A stretch of DNA of 37,976 bases from a virus (lineage: Duplodnaviria; Caudoviricetes), in IMG/VR virus record IMGVR_UViG_3300043932_000064, positions 1-37,976 of that record. One strand, given 5' to 3'. Below are positions 13,025 to 37,876 of the stretch, piece by piece; position 1 is the stretch's first letter, and the number at the start of each line of letters is the position of its first letter. The notes under the pieces were generated by a model, which was not told the DNA's origin, ran no database searches, and saw only the letters and a list, made by a program, of their open reading frames with translations. Made by a program: the position numbers and the translations under genes.

Positions 13025-13462
13025 TTATTGATTTTGTCTAGACCGTTTAATCATTTCTGCTTGTTGCATTAAAATTAGCTGGTCTTTCTTCCATTCTGGC
13101 ATTTCCTCCGCCTGGTCTTGATCCTGGTTAACAAATGGATATGCTTCTTCCACTCTTGGCATTTTGCCCGGGTCATTAAAAGCATAGGCAATTAAGCTTG
13201 CTAATTGGTGATCCATGTAAGCCCTGGCCGTTAACTGTTCTTTTTCATGTTGAACATTGGCTTCAGTCTGAACCATGACTTCTTCAAAAGTTAAGTCCCA
13301 AAATTCAGCCGCTGGAATACCACTTTCAACAGCCTTTGGATAGATAGCCCAAAGCAATTCGCTAACAGTGGAATAGCTTATTCCTCGTTGTCCACTAGGC
13401 TTAGGCCGGTTTGTGCCAATTCTGTAGCAGTCTTCGAATCGTCCTTCTGCTTCCCGAAAAAA
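13025..13462 (-). CDS. Tail assembly chaperone C-terminal extension (gpT-like), reached by -1 frameshift
   Basis: The -1 frame is open from T-TTT-TTC (13462-13456) into ...SYSTVSELLWAIYPKAVESG; no RBS before TTG 13357. Confidence 0.8.
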   Translation of the reverse strand, partial: FFREAEGRFEDCYRIGTNRPKPSGQRGISYSTVSELLWAIYPKAVESGIPAAEFWDLTFEEVMVQTEANVQHEKEQLTARAYMDHQLASLIAYAFNDPGKMPRVEEAYPFVNQDQDQAEEMPEWKKDQLILMQQAEMIKRSRQNQ

Positions 13463-13849: not shown

Positions 13850-14314
13850 TTATGAACCAGATACGGCCGTACCTGCTGGAGTGAAGTTAGGACCATCACT
13901 AACAGTAATAGTGATAGTGAACCCAACAGCCGCGTTGGTTGAAAGTGAATCCATCGCCAACGTTGCCCGGCCTTCAAATTGTGCGGTCATACCGTCTGGA
14001 TAGGTTACCTTAAATTGGTAAGTTACATTGTTATCACAGATTGCTTGCGCCTTCTTAAAGTTGTCGCCCTTGTAAACGCATTGGAAAGCCAGTGAAGAAC
14101 TCTGCTTAATACCTGGAATTTGCTTTTGCCGGGTATCTGCCAGCGTGGTTACATCAATAGTTTGTGGAGTACCGCCGACAGCTGGAATGGTCTTAACGTC
14201 CGTGATATCAGTCCACGCTTTGCCATCTTGAGAATATGATAGCTTGGTACCAGTACCGGCCAAACCATCGCTAGCGTCAACGCCTGCAAATTGTTGCAAC
14301 TTAAATTCTTGCAT
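13850..14314 (-). CDS. Major tail (tube) protein
   Basis: IPAVGGTPQTIDVTTL...GI...FKVTYPDG pattern of siphovirus tube proteins; position in tail module. Confidence 0.88.
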   Translation of the reverse strand: MQEFKLQQFAGVDASDGLAGTGTKLSYSQDGKAWTDITDVKTIPAVGGTPQTIDVTTLADTRQKQIPGIKQSSSLAFQCVYKGDNFKKAQAICDNNVTYQFKVTYPDGMTAQFEGRATLAMDSLSTNAAVGFTITITVSDGPNFTPAGTAVSGS

Positions 14315-18450: not shown

Positions 18451-19951
18451 TTAATTCCCTCCACTTCATCTGTATAATTCCATCGGAATCTTCCCATACA
18501 CTTTCGATTTTAAATCGTGTGTTTCTGCCAAATAAAACTTCTTGTTCTTGATTATTATACAGCGAAATGTCATGGCCGCTTACTGAATTTCTTATTTCAA
18601 CATGAATTTGTTCAGTTCCTTCGCCGTAATGTTCCTTAGAAGTAGAAATATAGCTTTGGTCTTTAAAAATACTGCCTTGCTTGTGTTCTTTTAAAAACTC
18701 TTTTACACCTTCATCTGTCATGAAATAGTCCCTTTGCAGTGGCCGAGTAGATGTATATGTTGGCAGCTTACTTAGAGCGGAATCAAGATCCTTAACCATT
18801 TCTTTATATGAATCTGACAGGCCATTAATTCCATGACTCCTTAGTTCATTATTCAATCTATAAGAATCTGAACTAAGATAACGATTCAAAGCATATTGCT
18901 CTGCATCAGTTAGTTTTGGAACCATAACGGCAACTGACCGACAAAAGGGATGCATTGGCGGAAAATTTTTGCCTGTCTGTGCTTTTACCACTTCTAATAC
19001 TTTTGCATTTAAAGACCGGCATATTTTGCTGGTGCGGTTGTCCAGAACTGCCACATAGCGATAATACTTTACACCTCTGGCTTTCCATCGGTCTATCTTG
19101 GCTTGGTTAGCCAAGTGTGCAGCTTCTGTTCGAATCAATCTCTTAGAATTAAATATTGATGTTTGAAACTCATCAGCTATCTTATTTGCTAAATCCGTTT
19201 CGCTCATTCCGGCTATTTCCTTGGCAGTAAAGAGTTCTCCTAAATGATTTGCCAATTGATCAGTATTATTCCAAATACGTTGAGAATAGTTACGGCCACT
19301 CCACTTGCGATTGGCTACTTTCTCAACATAATCTGCTGGAATTTCTTTTACTTCTTTAATTGGCTGGTCCTTTTGTACCTTAACGTCAGTGACTTTTTCA
19401 CCTTTCGAATTGTTCAAAGAGAGTTCGAATTCTTCACTAACGCTTTTGCCATTATTTGGCAGTTCAAACTCTTTACCAGTTTGATAAGCTATGCCTTCTT
19501 TGTCTGCCTGTTTCCAAGCTTGTTTAACTACTTCAGAATAGAGCTTTAAATTTTCTGCTTTTTCAGTAGCCCCAGCTGCTTTAGCAGAAATATATGCTTT
19601 AAATTTCCACTCATCCAGCCGAGTTATCCGGTTCTTTGCTGCAAGTTGACTAAGATAATCGCGTATAGCTTTCTTGCTTTCTCTGTCTTGAACAGTACTC
19701 GCTAATGACTTCAAAGCTACCATTTCCGAAGCCGAAATGGTGGAATTCAAAATTTTATTTGCGTCATCTTCACTAACCTGGCCATTAAAATAGCGCCGGT
19801 ATATTTGATCAGCTTGATCCATCAAATATATCTGCGCTTCTAGGTAGGCATTATTTATTTTTTTGAGATGCTCAGTTGTTTCGTCATAAGCTTGCTGCTC
19901 ATATTCCAAAGCTCTTAACGTCCAGTAGTCATCAATTTTATTCTTGCTCAT
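18437..19951 (-). CDS. Minor head protein (MuF/SPP1 gp7) with C-terminal ADP-ribosyltransferase domain
   Basis: RLIRTE, LDNRTSKIC and PPMHPFCRS MuF motifs, then Y..LN..LR, R, YISTS and QEQEVLF motifs of R-S-E type ARTs. Confidence 0.88.
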   Translation of the reverse strand: MSKNKIDDYWTLRALEYEQQAYDETTEHLKKINNAYLEAQIYLMDQADQIYRRYFNGQVSEDDANKILNSTISASEMVALKSLASTVQDRESKKAIRDYLSQLAAKNRITRLDEWKFKAYISAKAAGATEKAENLKLYSEVVKQAWKQADKEGIAYQTGKEFELPNNGKSVSEEFELSLNNSKGEKVTDVKVQKDQPIKEVKEIPADYVEKVANRKWSGRNYSQRIWNNTDQLANHLGELFTAKEIAGMSETDLANKIADEFQTSIFNSKRLIRTEAAHLANQAKIDRWKARGVKYYRYVAVLDNRTSKICRSLNAKVLEVVKAQTGKNFPPMHPFCRSVAVMVPKLTDAEQYALNRYLSSDSYRLNNELRSHGINGLSDSYKEMVKDLDSALSKLPTYTSTRPLQRDYFMTDEGVKEFLKEHKQGSIFKDQSYISTSKEHYGEGTEQIHVEIRNSVSGHDISLYNNQEQEVLFGRNTRFKIESVWEDSDGIIQMKWRELNEPK

Positions 19952-21685: not shown

Positions 21686-22981
21686 CTATCCTCTGAAGTA
21701 GCTTGGCTTAGCTTTAACTCTAACTTTGGCTCTTCGCATAATGTCGTAAAAGGCGTAACGTGTAGCGTCAATAGTATGGTTATTCTTGTCTTCTAGTCTT
21801 GCTTGAGGCTCACCGTTTCTGTCAGTAGCAAAGTCGATATTTTCAAATTCCCAGGCAATGCTTGGCGTTCTAACCGGATCAATTATTATTGCGTCGAGAT
21901 CTTCTAACCATCGTTCACCAAACTCAACGCTGTCTGGCCCTTTCTTTGCAGGTCGTGCTTTAGAAATGCCGTATTCTCTGAGCTCAGCTATAGATTTTGG
22001 CTCAGCAGAGTCACAATAGATCAATTGATATTGGTAGCCATGACCTTTCAACCACTGTGCACATTTTCTATTGCTTACTTGGAGCTTATATAGCTCGTCT
22101 ACTGCGTAAATTGTCCGGTGACGTTCATCGTAAGCCCACCGAACGAAAGCCAGCTGGTCGTTAGCAAAACCAAAGTCAAGGCCATTAACAAACGTGTCCA
22201 TCGTGTCCAGCAAATCATCGGTGACATAGTTCTTGATGATTTTCAGATTGTCAAATGGTTCAACGCCAGAGCCGACTGTTTCACCCATATATTCCCAGCG
22301 GTAACGACGCTCATTTGTCTTTTTAGCTGCCTCTGCTTCGATCTTGAATTCCTTGGCAACAAATGGATTGTCCAAATATGTTGTATGATGGACAACCGTA
22401 TTGTCTGGCAACATAGAAGAATTGTATTTCTTATTTACCCAGCTTTGCTTCCGCTTTGGTGGGTTGTAGCTGTAGAAGAATTTATAATGGCAGCCTTCAG
22501 GAAGCTCACCACGAAGCAATGAGTTAGTAATTGTAGTTACGTCAGATTCTTTCTTAAATTCAGCCAGCTCTTCAATCCACGCAATCGCAAATGGAAAGCG
22601 ACTGTCTTTCAAAGATTTGATTCGTTCCGGATCTTGTGCGCCTCTGAAAGTAATGTAATTTCCTCTGGGCAAATAGGTTAACTGCATCGGGTTTTTGGTT
22701 TGCTTCCATAAGTGACTAACGCCCTGTTCTTCGATTGCCCACTTCAATTGTTCAAAGACTGATAACCGAACCGTGTTCTCGACTGCTCTAATCGCTACTG
22801 CGTTGACAGGTTCTCGCATAAGCAGCTGCACAATTACGTGCGCAATGTCGGAGGACTTGCCAGAGCCACGGCCACCTTTTTCAACAATATTGAGCTTGGA
22901 TGGATCCATAGCTGCACGCCACAAAGAATAAAAAGCTGGCGGAAGAAAATCGCTAATCCTCTTCTGAATGACTTGCATCAT
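21686..22981 (-). CDS. terL: Terminase large subunit (PBSX family)
   Basis: GGRGSGKS Walker A, WIEE Walker B, SYNP, GLDFG and NNHTIDATRYA; GAAGGTG RBS before ATG 22981/22978. Confidence 0.95.
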   Translation of the reverse strand: MMQVIQKRISDFLPPAFYSLWRAAMDPSKLNIVEKGGRGSGKSSDIAHVIVQLLMREPVNAVAIRAVENTVRLSVFEQLKWAIEEQGVSHLWKQTKNPMQLTYLPRGNYITFRGAQDPERIKSLKDSRFPFAIAWIEELAEFKKESDVTTITNSLLRGELPEGCHYKFFYSYNPPKRKQSWVNKKYNSSMLPDNTVVHHTTYLDNPFVAKEFKIEAEAAKKTNERRYRWEYMGETVGSGVEPFDNLKIIKNYVTDDLLDTMDTFVNGLDFGFANDQLAFVRWAYDERHRTIYAVDELYKLQVSNRKCAQWLKGHGYQYQLIYCDSAEPKSIAELREYGISKARPAKKGPDSVEFGERWLEDLDAIIIDPVRTPSIAWEFENIDFATDRNGEPQARLEDKNNHTIDATRYAFYDIMRRAKVRVKAKPSYFRG

Positions 22982-23501
22982 GTTCACCTTCCGAAATGTC
23001 ATCAATAAACTCAATTCTTGAAAGTGCAGCCTCTTCATGTTCTTCCACGCGCTTTGCAGTAGCTTCAGAAATCTGTGCTTCTGCTTCCGCTTTACGGGCC
23101 TCAGCTTGCGTTTTAAGTTCAAGTGCGGCTTGCATCTTAGAAGATACCGGAAACCTCTTTCCAAGCTCTCTGAGGGCCGCTAGGCGGTCGCTGGTACGAG
23201 TTTTTAGAGTAACCACATCGCCATTATTTGCCAATTGCTCTTCGGTTGTCTCCCCTCTCGCAATGGAGGTGAGAGTTTGAAGATATTCAACCGCATCCAT
23301 GATCTTATGAGACTCAATCTCTGCCATCTTTTCATCGATAGCTTTCTTAACCCGATCATTTCGCAACAATCTAGCAGCTAAAGTGCTAGCTGTATTTCCA
23401 TTTTTGGCAGAGTAACCAGCAGACAAATAGGATTGAGTAGCATTTCCAGTTTTCACATATTCAGCTACGAATTTTCTTTGCTTAGCTGTTAATTCATCCA
23501 G
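22953..23501 (-). CDS. terS: Terminase small subunit (probable CTG start)
   Basis: LT.KQ.KF..EY...GNATQ....AGYS...A.RLL motif; AGGAGG 8 nt before CTG 23501. Confidence 0.92.
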   Translation of the reverse strand: MDELTAKQRKFVAEYVKTGNATQSYLSAGYSAKNGNTASTLAARLLRNDRVKKAIDEKMAEIESHKIMDAVEYLQTLTSIARGETTEEQLANNGDVVTLKTRTSDRLAALRELGKRFPVSSKMQAALELKTQAEARKAEAEAQISEATAKRVEEHEEAALSRIEFIDDISEGEHDASHSEED

Positions 23502-23523: not shown

Positions 23524-23553
23524 AAAGAAAAAAAGACAGCCGTTAAGCTGTCC
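23524..23553 (-). terminator. Intrinsic terminator between the late leader and terS
   Basis: GACAGC-TTAACG-GCTGTC followed by TTTTTTTCTTT. Confidence 0.75.
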
Positions 23554-23924
23554 GTAAAAGCACCGCCTTGTAAATATTGTACCTTCCGCTGTAGAAGACT
23601 AGTTTTTAATAATAATTCTGGTGCTTTTTATAGCACGTCCAGGAATCGAACCTGGATAATCCAATCGTGCCGGCCATAGCTGAAGGCAATATCCAGCCTG
23701 GCTCTTATTTATTGTTACAAGCTTGTCCGTAGTAACCTACAAACAAGAAAATCTGACAAGTGTTGCATGACCCGTCAGATCATCGCTAATTGTTAATCGG
23801 GATCTACAAACTTGATTTGCAATTAGCATACATGCCTCGCTCTCTCTATGTGTCCCGCATTGGTCCCCGCAGGGATCCCAACACTCTCTAAGTAAAGAAC
23901 ACTGTCAAGGTCATCGCAAGGCTA

Positions 23925-23996
23925 CAGAAACAGTTGGAATCGAACCAACTTCTCAGATTTTGGAGACCTGCATTTTGCCGATTAAACTATGTTTCT
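23925..23996 (-). tRNA. tRNA-Trp (CCA)
   Basis: Acceptor AGAAACA/TGTTTCT, D arm GTTT..AAAT, anticodon arm CAGGT-CTCCAAA-ATCTG, T arm GTTGG-TTCGATT-CCAAC, discriminator G; 3' CCA not encoded. Confidence 0.92.
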
Positions 23997-24705
23997 AAAA
24001 CGCCGTCCCATGGTGACGGCTACGAGAACTTAGACCAGAAGCAGCTGTCTTCCGGCCTTCGTAAGAGACCAGCTCTTTTCAATTGGAACATTCACGGACT
24101 CTGCCGCTGTTTTCCCTGAACCCGCGTATGGCTTAAAGCACTCGCTATACTGAGCACCAGCCAGGGACCGGCTCATAAGGTTGAGCCCTGGAATCGCACC
24201 AGAGCCGCTAGGGAAAGATTGAATACACGGGCGCTTGCCTCAACCTACAAAAATAATGTGAGTAATGTACTTGGACCTAATACTACAAATACTTAAATAT
24301 CGCCTGGAACGCCCAGGCTATGGACCATGTACGAGTCGAACGTAATAGGTCCTATGATAGCTGCAGAGAAGTTTGTCATTGCTTAAAGAAACGCTCATCT
24401 CAAGATGGTGTAAATAACTACTAAGGAGATAATTAATGACAAAGTATAGAGATAACGCACATATAGCGGCTATCAATGCCCAGCCAGGGAGTCGAACCCT
24501 GACCAGATACCAGCTTGATCTGCCAAATGACATTGATGATAAAAGACTGCGGGACCGCCCACAGTTTGAGCACTCGCTCTAAGCTGGCTGCCGGAGTTGA
24601 ACCGGCCAAGGGGCCGTGCCAGCTGACATTGTGTTGTAGTTATAGTTGTAAGTGATTTTTTCCGAATTGGAGGAACATCAATGTGAAAAAGAAAAGCATC
24701 ATCCA

Positions 24706-24745
24706 TCGAAAGCCTAAACTTTCGACACTACCATAGTAGCGCATT
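24706..24745 (-). promoter_or_regulatory. Putative activator-dependent late promoter and 5' hairpin
   Basis: -10-like TACTAT (24738-24733) just after the ArpU stop, no clear -35, followed by hairpin TCGAAAG-TTTAGG-CTTTCGA. Confidence 0.5.
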
Positions 24746-25245
24746 CAAGCTTGCAGTTGGCTAGGTGTTTCCTGGCAGAAAACTGTTAGTTCAGGGAGCT
24801 CTTTAAGTCCAAACGAGTCCTTGGAGAAGTCGTAGTTCTCAGCGAATTCGCATAGTGCATCAACCTTGTGCGGTGCCAAACTGTCCACTTCCCAGCCAAG
24901 GCGCGGGGCTACGATCTTGTCTGGCTTGCGTTCGATATAGCACTCAATAACGATAGTCTTATGAAAGTGGTAGAACTCGCTGTCAACCATCACTCCCACT
25001 GCGTGTTGGATGCAGTCGAAAAGCCGCTCATATAGTTCTCGATCGTTTAAGTGGTTAACTAGACTGATTTCCGTCGCATTTTTTGGCGATCCACTACTCC
25101 CACCAGTCGAAGATGAATAGTCAATGCCGGTTAGATCTGTCAGTGGTCTCCCAGCTCTAGCCATGATGTGCGGTAAATCCTTAATCAGTAGCTCCCTGGC
25201 GTTGGCCGCCGTTGCTACTCGGTCGATAGGTGCAAACAAGCTCAT
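24745..25245 (-). CDS. ArpU-family late transcriptional activator
   Basis: LF..ID...TA.NAR..L N-terminus, I....Y and K..AL.EFAE C-terminus; last gene before the packaging module; AGGAGG before ATG 25245. Confidence 0.8.
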   Translation of the reverse strand: MSLFAPIDRVATAANARELLIKDLPHIMARAGRPLTDLTGIDYSSSTGGSSGSPKNATEISLVNHLNDRELYERLFDCIQHAVGVMVDSEFYHFHKTIVIECYIERKPDKIVAPRLGWEVDSLAPHKVDALCEFAENYDFSKDSFGLKELPELTVFCQETPSQLQA

Positions 25246-35000: not shown

Positions 35001-35756
35001 ATGGACCCAAATCATTTTATCGATATGTATAATGCTTTGCCAGAAAACACAAAAGAAGCGCTTTTAAATCCAACAGCTCAAAGCATTGGAGATGCCATGG
35101 GTGGTGCGGCAAAGTTTATTCTGACTCCATTTAAAATGTTAGGTATCCTTAGTGACCATGCTTGTAATGATTTCAAAACAAGAATCAATAATAAATCGAA
35201 AGAAGTTCCGCTTGATAACCGAGATCCCAGTAAGCTTGGCCTGGTATTAAAAGCCATCGAAGAATCACGCTACCAGCTCAATGAAGATTTACTTCGAGAG
35301 ATCTATGCAAATCTAGTGGTTTCTAGTGTAGACAATCGAAAAAACAACAAAATAACTCCTAGATACGCGACCGCTCTGTCGCAACTAGGAGTTGATGATG
35401 TTAGATTTTTACAGAAGCTATACTTTGCTGAGTCTCACAATTTTCCTTGTGGTAGGCTTATTTCAAAACGTGATGGTGGTTCACTAATTCTTACAGAGCC
35501 AGCTTACTATCCAACAAACGGTTCAATCGCGGTTCGTATTGCTGAAACGTTGGATATTCTCGAATCATTAGGATTAATAAAAGTGTTCTTTGACACTTGG
35601 CTTTCAAGTGATATTTATTTTCAGAAATATTCTGAGATTGAAGGTTTTCTCAAAAACTTTCATCCAAGTTTTTTAGCAAACAATGTTGAGCTTGAAAAAG
35701 GATACATTAAGCTCAGTGATTTTGGCCTGTCTCTTTGCTCATGTATTTTTGAATAA
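35001..35756 (+). CDS. DUF4393/Abi-alpha family protein
   Basis: L..P.A.SIG, LREIYANL..SS.D.R and P.Y...LSQL..DD..FL motifs; L.SLGLI and LSDFG near the C-terminus. Confidence 0.78.
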   Translation: MDPNHFIDMYNALPENTKEALLNPTAQSIGDAMGGAAKFILTPFKMLGILSDHACNDFKTRINNKSKEVPLDNRDPSKLGLVLKAIEESRYQLNEDLLREIYANLVVSSVDNRKNNKITPRYATALSQLGVDDVRFLQKLYFAESHNFPCGRLISKRDGGSLILTEPAYYPTNGSIAVRIAETLDILESLGLIKVFFDTWLSSDIYFQKYSEIEGFLKNFHPSFLANNVELEKGYIKLSDFGLSLCSCIFE

Positions 35757-36965: not shown

Positions 36966-37436
36966 ATGGAATTGCTTTTATCTGACGAAGAAGCACAACA
37001 TTTGATCAGCATCATTAAGAACATAGTTCCACAGCAGCCACATGTTCTTGAAAAGACTGCCAAGGGTCAAATTTCTATCGAAGCCAAAGAAATAAAGCAT
37101 GGATTTATTCTGTATTACATGTTCGCATTGGACAATATCCATTTGAACTTCACTGATGCACGAACCCATCACACACTAGTAAGAATTAACTTAGACGAAA
37201 AATTCCATAAAAATAGTGACGGCCACAAAGTAAGAGGAAATCGTGTAGAAATATTTTCCGCTGAAGAATTTATAAAGAAGGGCGATGGATATACACACTA
37301 CAAAGCCTATTTATTGCCTTTTAAGACTATTCGGAATACAAATGACTTTTTCGAAGCTATGGATGATATACTAAACTACACACACACCAGCAAAGGAAAA
37401 GAAACAATTTTTGTTCACAACACTACACTACTATGA
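36966..37436 (+). CDS. DUF6978-like protein
   Basis: L.D.EA..LI...K, LVRINL....HKN.DG..V.G motifs; upstream of a DUF1828 gene. Confidence 0.7.
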   Translation: MELLLSDEEAQHLISIIKNIVPQQPHVLEKTAKGQISIEAKEIKHGFILYYMFALDNIHLNFTDARTHHTLVRINLDEKFHKNSDGHKVRGNRVEIFSAEEFIKKGDGYTHYKAYLLPFKTIRNTNDFFEAMDDILNYTHTSKGKETIFVHNTTLL

Positions 37437-37450
37437 ATGGAGGTGATCCC

Positions 37451-37876
37451 ATGTGTAGTCTTGAAAGAGAAATTGAAGCTATCACAGCTGATTGGCTTAA
37501 ATTCTTGTGTCAAAGTTATAACTTCAAAATAGTCGATGACAATCACATCAACGTTGTTACTCCACTGACCGATGCATTTGATGATGGAATAACTATTATG
37601 ATTTCAAAGCATAATCAAGAATACACTGTATCAGACCAAGGGTATACACTCTGGAACCTGGAGTCTCGAGGGATTAATATTTCCAAGGGTAGCCAACGGC
37701 AAAAAATTGTAAATTCTGTTATAAGAACAGAGAATGTAGAACTCTCAAAAGAAAAAGCGATTTTCAAGGTCGGGTTAAAAAGCCAAATTCCACAAATGAT
37801 TTTCGATGTAACCCAAGCAATCATCAAAGTTGGCAACTTAGGTTTAACAAACTTAAACTTCCCACACCAAAAATAA
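37451..37876 (+). CDS. DUF1828-domain protein (short form)
   Basis: GGAGGT RBS; V.TP..D.F.D.I.I, SDQGYTLWNL...G and QAII.V motifs. Confidence 0.75.
   Translation: MCSLEREIEAITADWLKFLCQSYNFKIVDDNHINVVTPLTDAFDDGITIMISKHNQEYTVSDQGYTLWNLESRGINISKGSQRQKIVNSVIRTENVELSKEKAIFKVGLKSQIPQMIFDVTQAIIKVGNLGLTNLNFPHQK

Follow-up and report, generated by a model that had tools for sequence, protein, structure and literature searches.

Prophages are known to encode trans-acting sRNAs, among them the Pas sRNAs of Escherichia coli and SprD/SprX of Staphylococcus aureus. Like the RNAs proposed here, these are phage-borne regulators that base pair with host mRNAs, but each is a single gene, unlike the array described below, and we know of none among them with a tRNA-like processing array or a retargeted scaffold. 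A variable insert closed by an acceptor helix and a T-arm is found in the tRNA-like domain of tmRNA and in Y RNAs, and the leader modules are likewise built as an acceptor helix and T-arm around an insert. Unlike tmRNA and Y RNAs, however, the leader gives no tmRNA call and no Rfam match of this kind, holds many copies per locus, and encodes no CCA. GOLLD and ROOL are located next to tRNAs. They are described as large noncoding RNAs of Lactobacillus prophages (PMC12286853), but each is one ornate fold, whereas the leader is modular and shuffled, and Rfam models of neither RNA matched the window or any of 20 related loci.

The streptococcal csRNAs (cia-dependent small RNAs) are described as carrying anti-Shine-Dalgarno (anti-SD) and anti-start text between stem-loops, with a proposed block of the ribosome (PMC3091779), and comC is described as a csRNA target (PMC4507080). 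The leader segments also carry anti-SD and anti-start text. However, csRNAs are chromosomal and each has its own CiaR promoter, whereas the leader RNAs are phage borne, arrayed between tRNA-like modules, and contain guide text that is exchanged between phages; no csRNA family in Rfam matched the leader even at E 10, and the leader lies behind arpU. In the MHV68 TMERs, a tRNA-like element is described as directing the release of regulatory hairpins by tRNase Z (PMC4838037). A tRNA-like acceptor/T-arm element adjoins the regulatory hairpin in the leader too, but TMERs belong to a eukaryotic virus and involve Pol III and Dicer/miRNA, whereas the leader is bacterial, its modules consist of acceptor and T-arm, and its proposed action is direct pairing with ribosome binding sites (RBSs). 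By analogy, the leader RNAs would be csRNA-like in action and TMER-like in release while being members of neither group. A literature search, with subscription papers and supplements outside its scope, found no publication describing an arpU-terS array, and the annotation of phiJB is blank between the two genes. This gap of Lactobacillus prophages, usually unannotated, turns out to hold an RNA array that is regular and found throughout the genus.

The arpU-terS leader and its tRNA-like modules

The window, that is, the whole 37,976-nucleotide stretch of DNA analyzed, is the genome of a temperate phage with mostly minus-strand genes, and the features described here lie on the minus strand unless the plus strand is named. 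Among named relatives, Lactobacillus equicursoris prophages are the closest, with an arpU identity of 94-95% (genome G001), and the match of a type I-E spacer of genome G002 to window positions 37713-37745, at 31 of 33 bases, ties the phage to the L. equicursoris clade. The leader is a noncoding gap of 1.2 kb between the gene for an ArpU-family late transcription activator (24745..25245; phrog_248, E 4e-19; TIGR01637, E 1.9e-8, below the cut-off) and the terminase small-subunit gene terS (22953..23501; PF03592, E 7e-27; CTG start inferred). An apparent CTG start of terS behind a strong SD is seen at window position 23501 and also in L007, L016, and L017.

ArpU proteins are described as activating a late promoter via repeats located where their own gene ends (PMC3753634), and the gap therefore probably forms the 5' end region of the late transcript, extending from about 24726 to a terminator-like hairpin detected by sequence scan at the leader end, just before terS (23526..23553). 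A predicted -10 box of the late promoter (TACTAT; 24733..24738) is consistent with a predicted, rather than mapped, start near 24726, and a motif like TA..T-N-GTCGAAA at this promoter recurs in many relatives. In gut metagenome contigs from four studies, positions 24300-24760 are nearly unchanged. Three of these contigs diverge at ~24792-24795, inside the 3' end of arpU and a short way upstream of the late promoter as predicted; this sequence switch at ~24795 marks a recombination point, and the leader thus appears to move as a module.

Besides a tRNA-Trp, the leader of the window contains five tRNA-like modules of the acceptor/T-arm type. The tRNA-Trp (CCA anticodon; 23924..23997) was identified by ARAGORN and by Rfam (RF00005), and tRNA was the only family to reach the gathering score in an Rfam search of the window, two other matches being weak and at chance level (E 2.7 and 8.4). 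In the five modules, the D and anticodon arms are replaced by short inserts, and the T-arm and an acceptor-like helix remain. The predicted leader RNA begins with a 5' hairpin (24705..24726) that has a 9-bp stem in folds and is kept in relatives L001 and L003. Module 1 (24582..24624) is an acceptor helix and T-arm with an 11-nt insert containing CCCCUU; module 2 (24477..24535; T-loop at 24496) adjoins a guide hairpin at its 3' end; module 3 (24321..24352) follows immediately after that hairpin; module 4 (24179..24245), which has a U/C-rich internal loop (UCUUUCCCU), is kept in L001, L003, and L189; and module 5 (23632..23671) is present in L007 too. All five were recognized both in folds and by a T-arm scan.

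Comparison across the genus drew on arpU loci from 6 phage records and from 40 stretches of genome sequence, 46 in all, of which 4 had no tblastn match and 1 was too short, giving 41 leaders, a set that includes close relatives and in which a few automatic boundaries take in coding DNA. These leaders contain 118 T-arms in the sense orientation and 1 in antisense, compared with 1.8 ± 1.2 in shuffles. An acceptor-like helix closes 92 of the 118 sense T-arms, and roughly a quarter resemble true tRNAs. The leader is a regular RNA array across the genus.

Other elements accompany the modules. Further stable hairpins occur past the tRNA-Trp (window 23720-23920), including a GCGAUGA...GAGCGAG motif pair common to many related leaders. 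A GGUCUCUUAU/C motif at window positions 24060-24080 recurs in L164, L165, L189, and L190, within tRNA-like module inserts of several Lactobacillus prophages. In leaders L015 to L019 (phiJB 19150-19280), a possible pseudoknot (GGGUA/UACCC and GUGCC/GGCAC) sits within one of the tRNA-like modules; in this module an anti-SD stands 5' of a UGUCAU anti-start, which is the reverse of the usual order, and the layout is tmRNA-like.

Mirrored start sites and the variable guide hairpin

The original prediction had singled out two plus-strand initiation regions with no substantial gene behind them, the complements of which would act from the leader RNA. The first was found as described, with TAAGGAG at 24422-24428, a 7-nt spacer, and an ATG at 24436 that opens a 48-codon frame to 24582. 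At the second, the GGAGG at 24669-24673 is present, but the start in register is an ATG at 24681 (7-nt spacer, then TGA) rather than the proposed GTG at 24683, which has a 9-nt spacer. The 48-codon frame (24436..24582, plus strand) is probably no gene, with no Pfam or NCBIfam match and a length of 2 codons in L003 and L001. Across the related leaders, 12 of 15 frames opened on the plus strand are 1-13 codons long, and no frame shows conservation.

With a strict anti-TIR defined as an anti-SD and an anti-AUG in register, the window leader contains 2 such motifs versus 0.15 expected (P = 0.01, 2000 shuffles). The 41 leaders, close relatives included, contain 15 versus 2.6 ± 1.5 (maximum of 7 in 100 shuffles). 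Anti-SD text is enriched in the same leaders (60 versus 26.9 in shuffles) and SD text is depleted (20 versus 34), and in 13 leaders the first anti-SD lies 49-84 nt past a conserved start motif. The anti-TIR guides are real and genus-wide.

The proposal that the anti-SD segments lie in exposed loops found no clear support, since the exposure of anti-SD 5-mers does not exceed that of the remaining C-rich 5-mers (p = 0.21). For guide segment 2 (24418..24452), the proposed stem TTTGTCATT/AATGACAAA (24372-24380/24435-24443) exists but hides the anti-AUG and is in competition with alternative folds; the anti-SD of segment 2 is about half open (probability unpaired, 0.51, with predicted folds unstable). 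Segment 1 (24667..24699; anti-SD CCUCC, 7 nt, anti-AUG) does have the proposed ACATTG/CAATGT stem (24679-24684/24626-24631), but this is weak and has a 9-bp alternative partner at 24530-24538. Its anti-SD is predicted to be mostly paired (probability unpaired, 0.03), and L001 keeps segment 1 although the ACATTG/CAATGT partner is lost. Segment 1 is likely a second guide. The weaker stretches CCCCTT and TCTTTCCCT lie in tRNA-like module inserts, as had been noted, but have no in-register start codon and no credible partner; the idea that weaker C/U-rich loops serve as guides found no support, as neither the CCCCUU nor the UCUUUCCCU loop gave a credible partner.

Segment 2 is part of guide hairpin 2 (24356..24474), located between modules 2 and 3, in which an outer stem (GAUAGCCGC/GCAGCUAUC) surrounds a variable guide. 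This hairpin is known in four versions (window, L003, L001, and L007), and the expectation of variable loops on a conserved scaffold among related phages held: the outer stem is kept in all four, while the plus-strand guide text reads AAGGAG-ATAATTA-ATG, AAGGAG-TTTTCGA-ATG, GGAG-TTTTTT-ATG, and AAGGAG-TAACAGA-TTG. The window and L003 share the anti-SD, the anti-AUG, and the spacer length and differ in all 6 bases between; L001 and L007 have different guides within the same outer stem. Over the four versions, 33 of 36 cells of the outer stem are paired, with 1 compensatory pair, and covariation in these four rows is not above shuffles (118/500). A tRNA-like module stands directly 3' of the guide hairpin in 4 of 4 versions. 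The tRNA-like modules bracket the hairpin, a point absent from the original prediction, and are likely to be the cutting signals. No further scaffold copies were found in metagenome contigs or in 401 Lactobacillaceae genomes; 23 of 24 candidate scaffold matches look like chance, with no arpU nearby (of a further set of 7, 3 were examined).

The variable text in a conserved scaffold, the genus-wide enrichment, and the unconserved mini-ORFs all argue for trans-acting guides, with the atp operon, a housekeeping operon of the host, as the lead target; for the phage's own genes and for cas genes of the host clade, the idea found no support. On this sequence evidence, the anti-SD/anti-start segments are likely retargetable antisense sRNAs processed in the manner of tRNAs, and the leader RNAs likely silence in trans.

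Candidate targets in the host

ATP synthase, encoded by the atp operon, is the best current lead for the target of segment 2, whose predicted pairing site is the atpH start at the atpF-atpH junction of the host. Ranking covered 592-795 starts of G001 (~0.65-0.86 of 2.1 Mb, ~40% of one host genome), so a better partner may exist. The window segment ranks atpH first among both 592 and 795 starts, at -27.8 kcal/mol (net -7.4 after opening costs). By computation, all four scaffold versions pair with atp-operon starts: the best atp ranks among the 592 starts for window, L003, L001, and L007 are atpH 1, atpH 1, atpE 2, and atpD 4, the L001 guide placing atpE first or second. Seven other guides have best atp ranks of 33-85 of 592. 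The L007 guide, which is anti-UUG, picks atpD, a UUG-start gene (tested after the atp lead arose). Shuffles with the anti-SD and anti-start kept equal the real guides in 0, 0, 0, and 1 of 22. A set of 52 anti-SD segments included three scaffold guides; these have the three top atp scores, and none of the 49 others, most of which come from other host species, reaches z -2.8 for atp.

The two guides from G001 prophages pair best with G001-type starts, L003 with atpH (-32.8 versus -28.1 to -29.4) and L001 with atpE (-20.7 versus -15.0 to -15.4), and the L007 guide pairs best with G015 atpD, by 1 kcal/mol. The window guide pairs slightly better with G044 atpH, and G001 may not be the host of the window phage. 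The window and L003 guides reach atpH via different spacer pairings. Once opening costs are subtracted, the net energies are modest (-7 to -10 kcal/mol), and single best matches are no outliers: against 300 starts, the best z of shuffled guides is -3.2 to -4.35. As single best matches of such size are common for shuffled guides, the evidence lies in the convergence on one eight-gene operon. The atp lead is post hoc, having come after the holin, own early genes, nhaC, and cas7 were tried. The window is related to L003, the L001 match came to light together with theirs, and only L007 is a clean prediction, its guide heading the 50 non-discovery segments (p about 0.02). A loose precedent is the described drop of atp transcripts in phiKZ infection (PMC8244752).

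For segment 1, the amino-acid ABC transporter mRNA is a candidate target: four versions of the segment rank the binding-protein/permease fusion of G001 at 1, 1, 4, and 1 of 592. This candidate agrees with the suggestion that the MKKK-type start indicates a secreted or surface protein, but it fails the cognate-host test, as the G002 segment 1 guide reaches only -22.3 (rank 10) with its own transporter orthologue versus -30.1 with that of G001. As a target, nhaC was set aside: a segment-1 pattern matches it in many species, but the host-clade orthologues start differently. Neither segment 2 nor segment 1 has a near-perfect host target in G001, the prophages themselves excepted.

Proposed mechanism and alternative explanations

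RNase P and RNase Z cleave at the 5' and 3' ends of tRNAs, respectively. In the mechanism that we infer, from promoter and processing to repression and benefit, ArpU would switch on the late promoter, and the polycistronic leader RNA would be cut at the CCA-less tRNA-like modules, by RNase P on the 5' side and RNase Z on the 3' side, with release of a ~100-nt 5' RNA (segment 1) and a ~120-nt hairpin (segment 2). The half-open anti-SD would nucleate pairing at the atpF-atpH junction, and the hairpin (24356-24474) would cover the atpH RBS, block atpH translation, and lower the synthesis of F1Fo ATP synthase. We regard the case for this course of events as evenly balanced. Held more tentatively, and given slightly less than an even chance, is the broader view of a retargetable guide cassette, free of protein, in the late leader of temperate Lactobacillus phages, released by tRNA enzymes of the host, with one scaffold re-aimed at least three times within a host operon (atpH, atpE, and atpD) and ATP synthase turned off late. 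F1Fo in lactobacilli mainly consumes ATP to pump protons, so silencing might leave more ATP to assembly, or it might reduce the proton-motive force ahead of lysis, although any such benefit is speculative. If true, the mechanism would be a bacterial counterpart to tRNA-processed viral microRNAs, would place host energy metabolism under late-phase phage RNA control, and would provide a natural, multiplexed scaffold for antisense use in food-grade lactobacilli.

The guides may instead be generic or aimed elsewhere, at many host mRNAs in csRNA-like fashion, at defense genes of the type I-E cas kind, or at genes of other phages, with the atp match incidental; this is unlikely, if far from negligible. 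The combination of anti-SD and anti-AUG is the csRNA pattern as described (PMC3091779), type I-E cas7 occurs in 33 of 99 genomes, the single match of segment 2 within 3 mismatches in those 99 genomes is a cas7 start, and cas6e, cas8e, or Abi-like starts rank high for some guides. The atp signal is nevertheless specific to one scaffold, and the reversed control of the cas7 search gave 4 matches. Type I-E cas7, cas8e, and cas6e were rejected as targets, being strong outside the host clade only: for segment 2, cas starts of the host clade get no higher than the top 6-8%, and G001 cas7 is at the 17th percentile. A test for an RNA anti-CRISPR found no match to a CRISPR-repeat family in Rfam, and cognate-clade cas starts were not outliers; of 5 genomes of the clade, 1 had a Cas9 match above the cut-off. 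Nor does the locus have a Cas-linked guide-array layout, with no repeat array, ArpU and TerS encoded on its flanks, and no adjacent Cas7-like gene. Regulation of the phage's own genes (holin, ssb, sak4, or terS), which would time replication shut-off or lysis, is the least probable reading considered here. The holin start is the best own-genome partner of segment 1, phiJB leader segments match their own sak4/ssb starts (13190-13208 and 13900-13918), and a G103 segment matches its own ssb start, one base difference between phiJB and G103 being mirrored in segment and start (pooled test not significant, p 0.16-0.31). The holin, ssb, and sak4 targets, attractive by eye, were rejected, as cognate versus non-cognate tests were flat: 1 of 39 leaders had its own phage on top (p = 0.36), 3 of 62 guides reached p < 0.05 (holin, p = 0.41), and the first downstream gene, as a target in cis, was picked in 1 of 29. 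The G001 holin also has a different start, yet G001 prophages keep segment 1. Four sequencing runs that contain the leader did not yield the holin start region, which does not prove that it is absent.

Two further explanations dispense with guides. The tRNA-like modules could be the working parts, either as stability caps or by binding tRNA nucleases, synthetases, or processing enzymes as decoys or sponges, and the anti-SD a pyrimidine-rich linker. The modules are indeed far more regular and numerous than the guides, several leaders have modules without an anti-SD, and the equal exposure of anti-SD and other C-rich 5-mers fits a linker; that dinucleotide-preserving shuffles miss the SD-to-AUG register (15 versus 2.6) and the atp pairing makes this account improbable. 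There is a smaller chance still, just above that of own-gene regulation, that the plus-strand SD and ATG are real or relic translation starts, either of minigenes or as remnants of deleted opposite-strand genes. Conservation of the SD and the start around a spacer that is free to vary, as seen here, is also the signature of a true RBS on the opposite strand, start-stop or two-codon frames recur, and opposite-strand ORFs lie downstream of arpU in some prophages. However, no peptide is conserved, the RNA structure is all on the other strand (118 T-arms versus 1), the plus strand has one promoter-like site versus 2.9 expected by chance, and the sites lie within a conserved sense-strand stem.

Some observations outside the leader concern the phage and its host clade. 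The type I-E spacer of G002 that matches the window, CRISPR spacer 43 (L217, G002:C12), is identical at 33 of 33 bases to the DUF1828 gene of that genome's own prophage (L189:14408-14440), and the adjacent cas operon is apparently intact; the 5' flank of the target is TTG (presumed crRNA orientation), so active self-targeting in G002 is uncertain. The lysogeny-side cargo of the window (35001-35756 and 36966-37876) includes an Abi_alpha gene and a DUF6978-DUF1828 pair, which are candidate defense genes, and the DUF6978-DUF1828 pair is ~93% identical in the G002 prophage.
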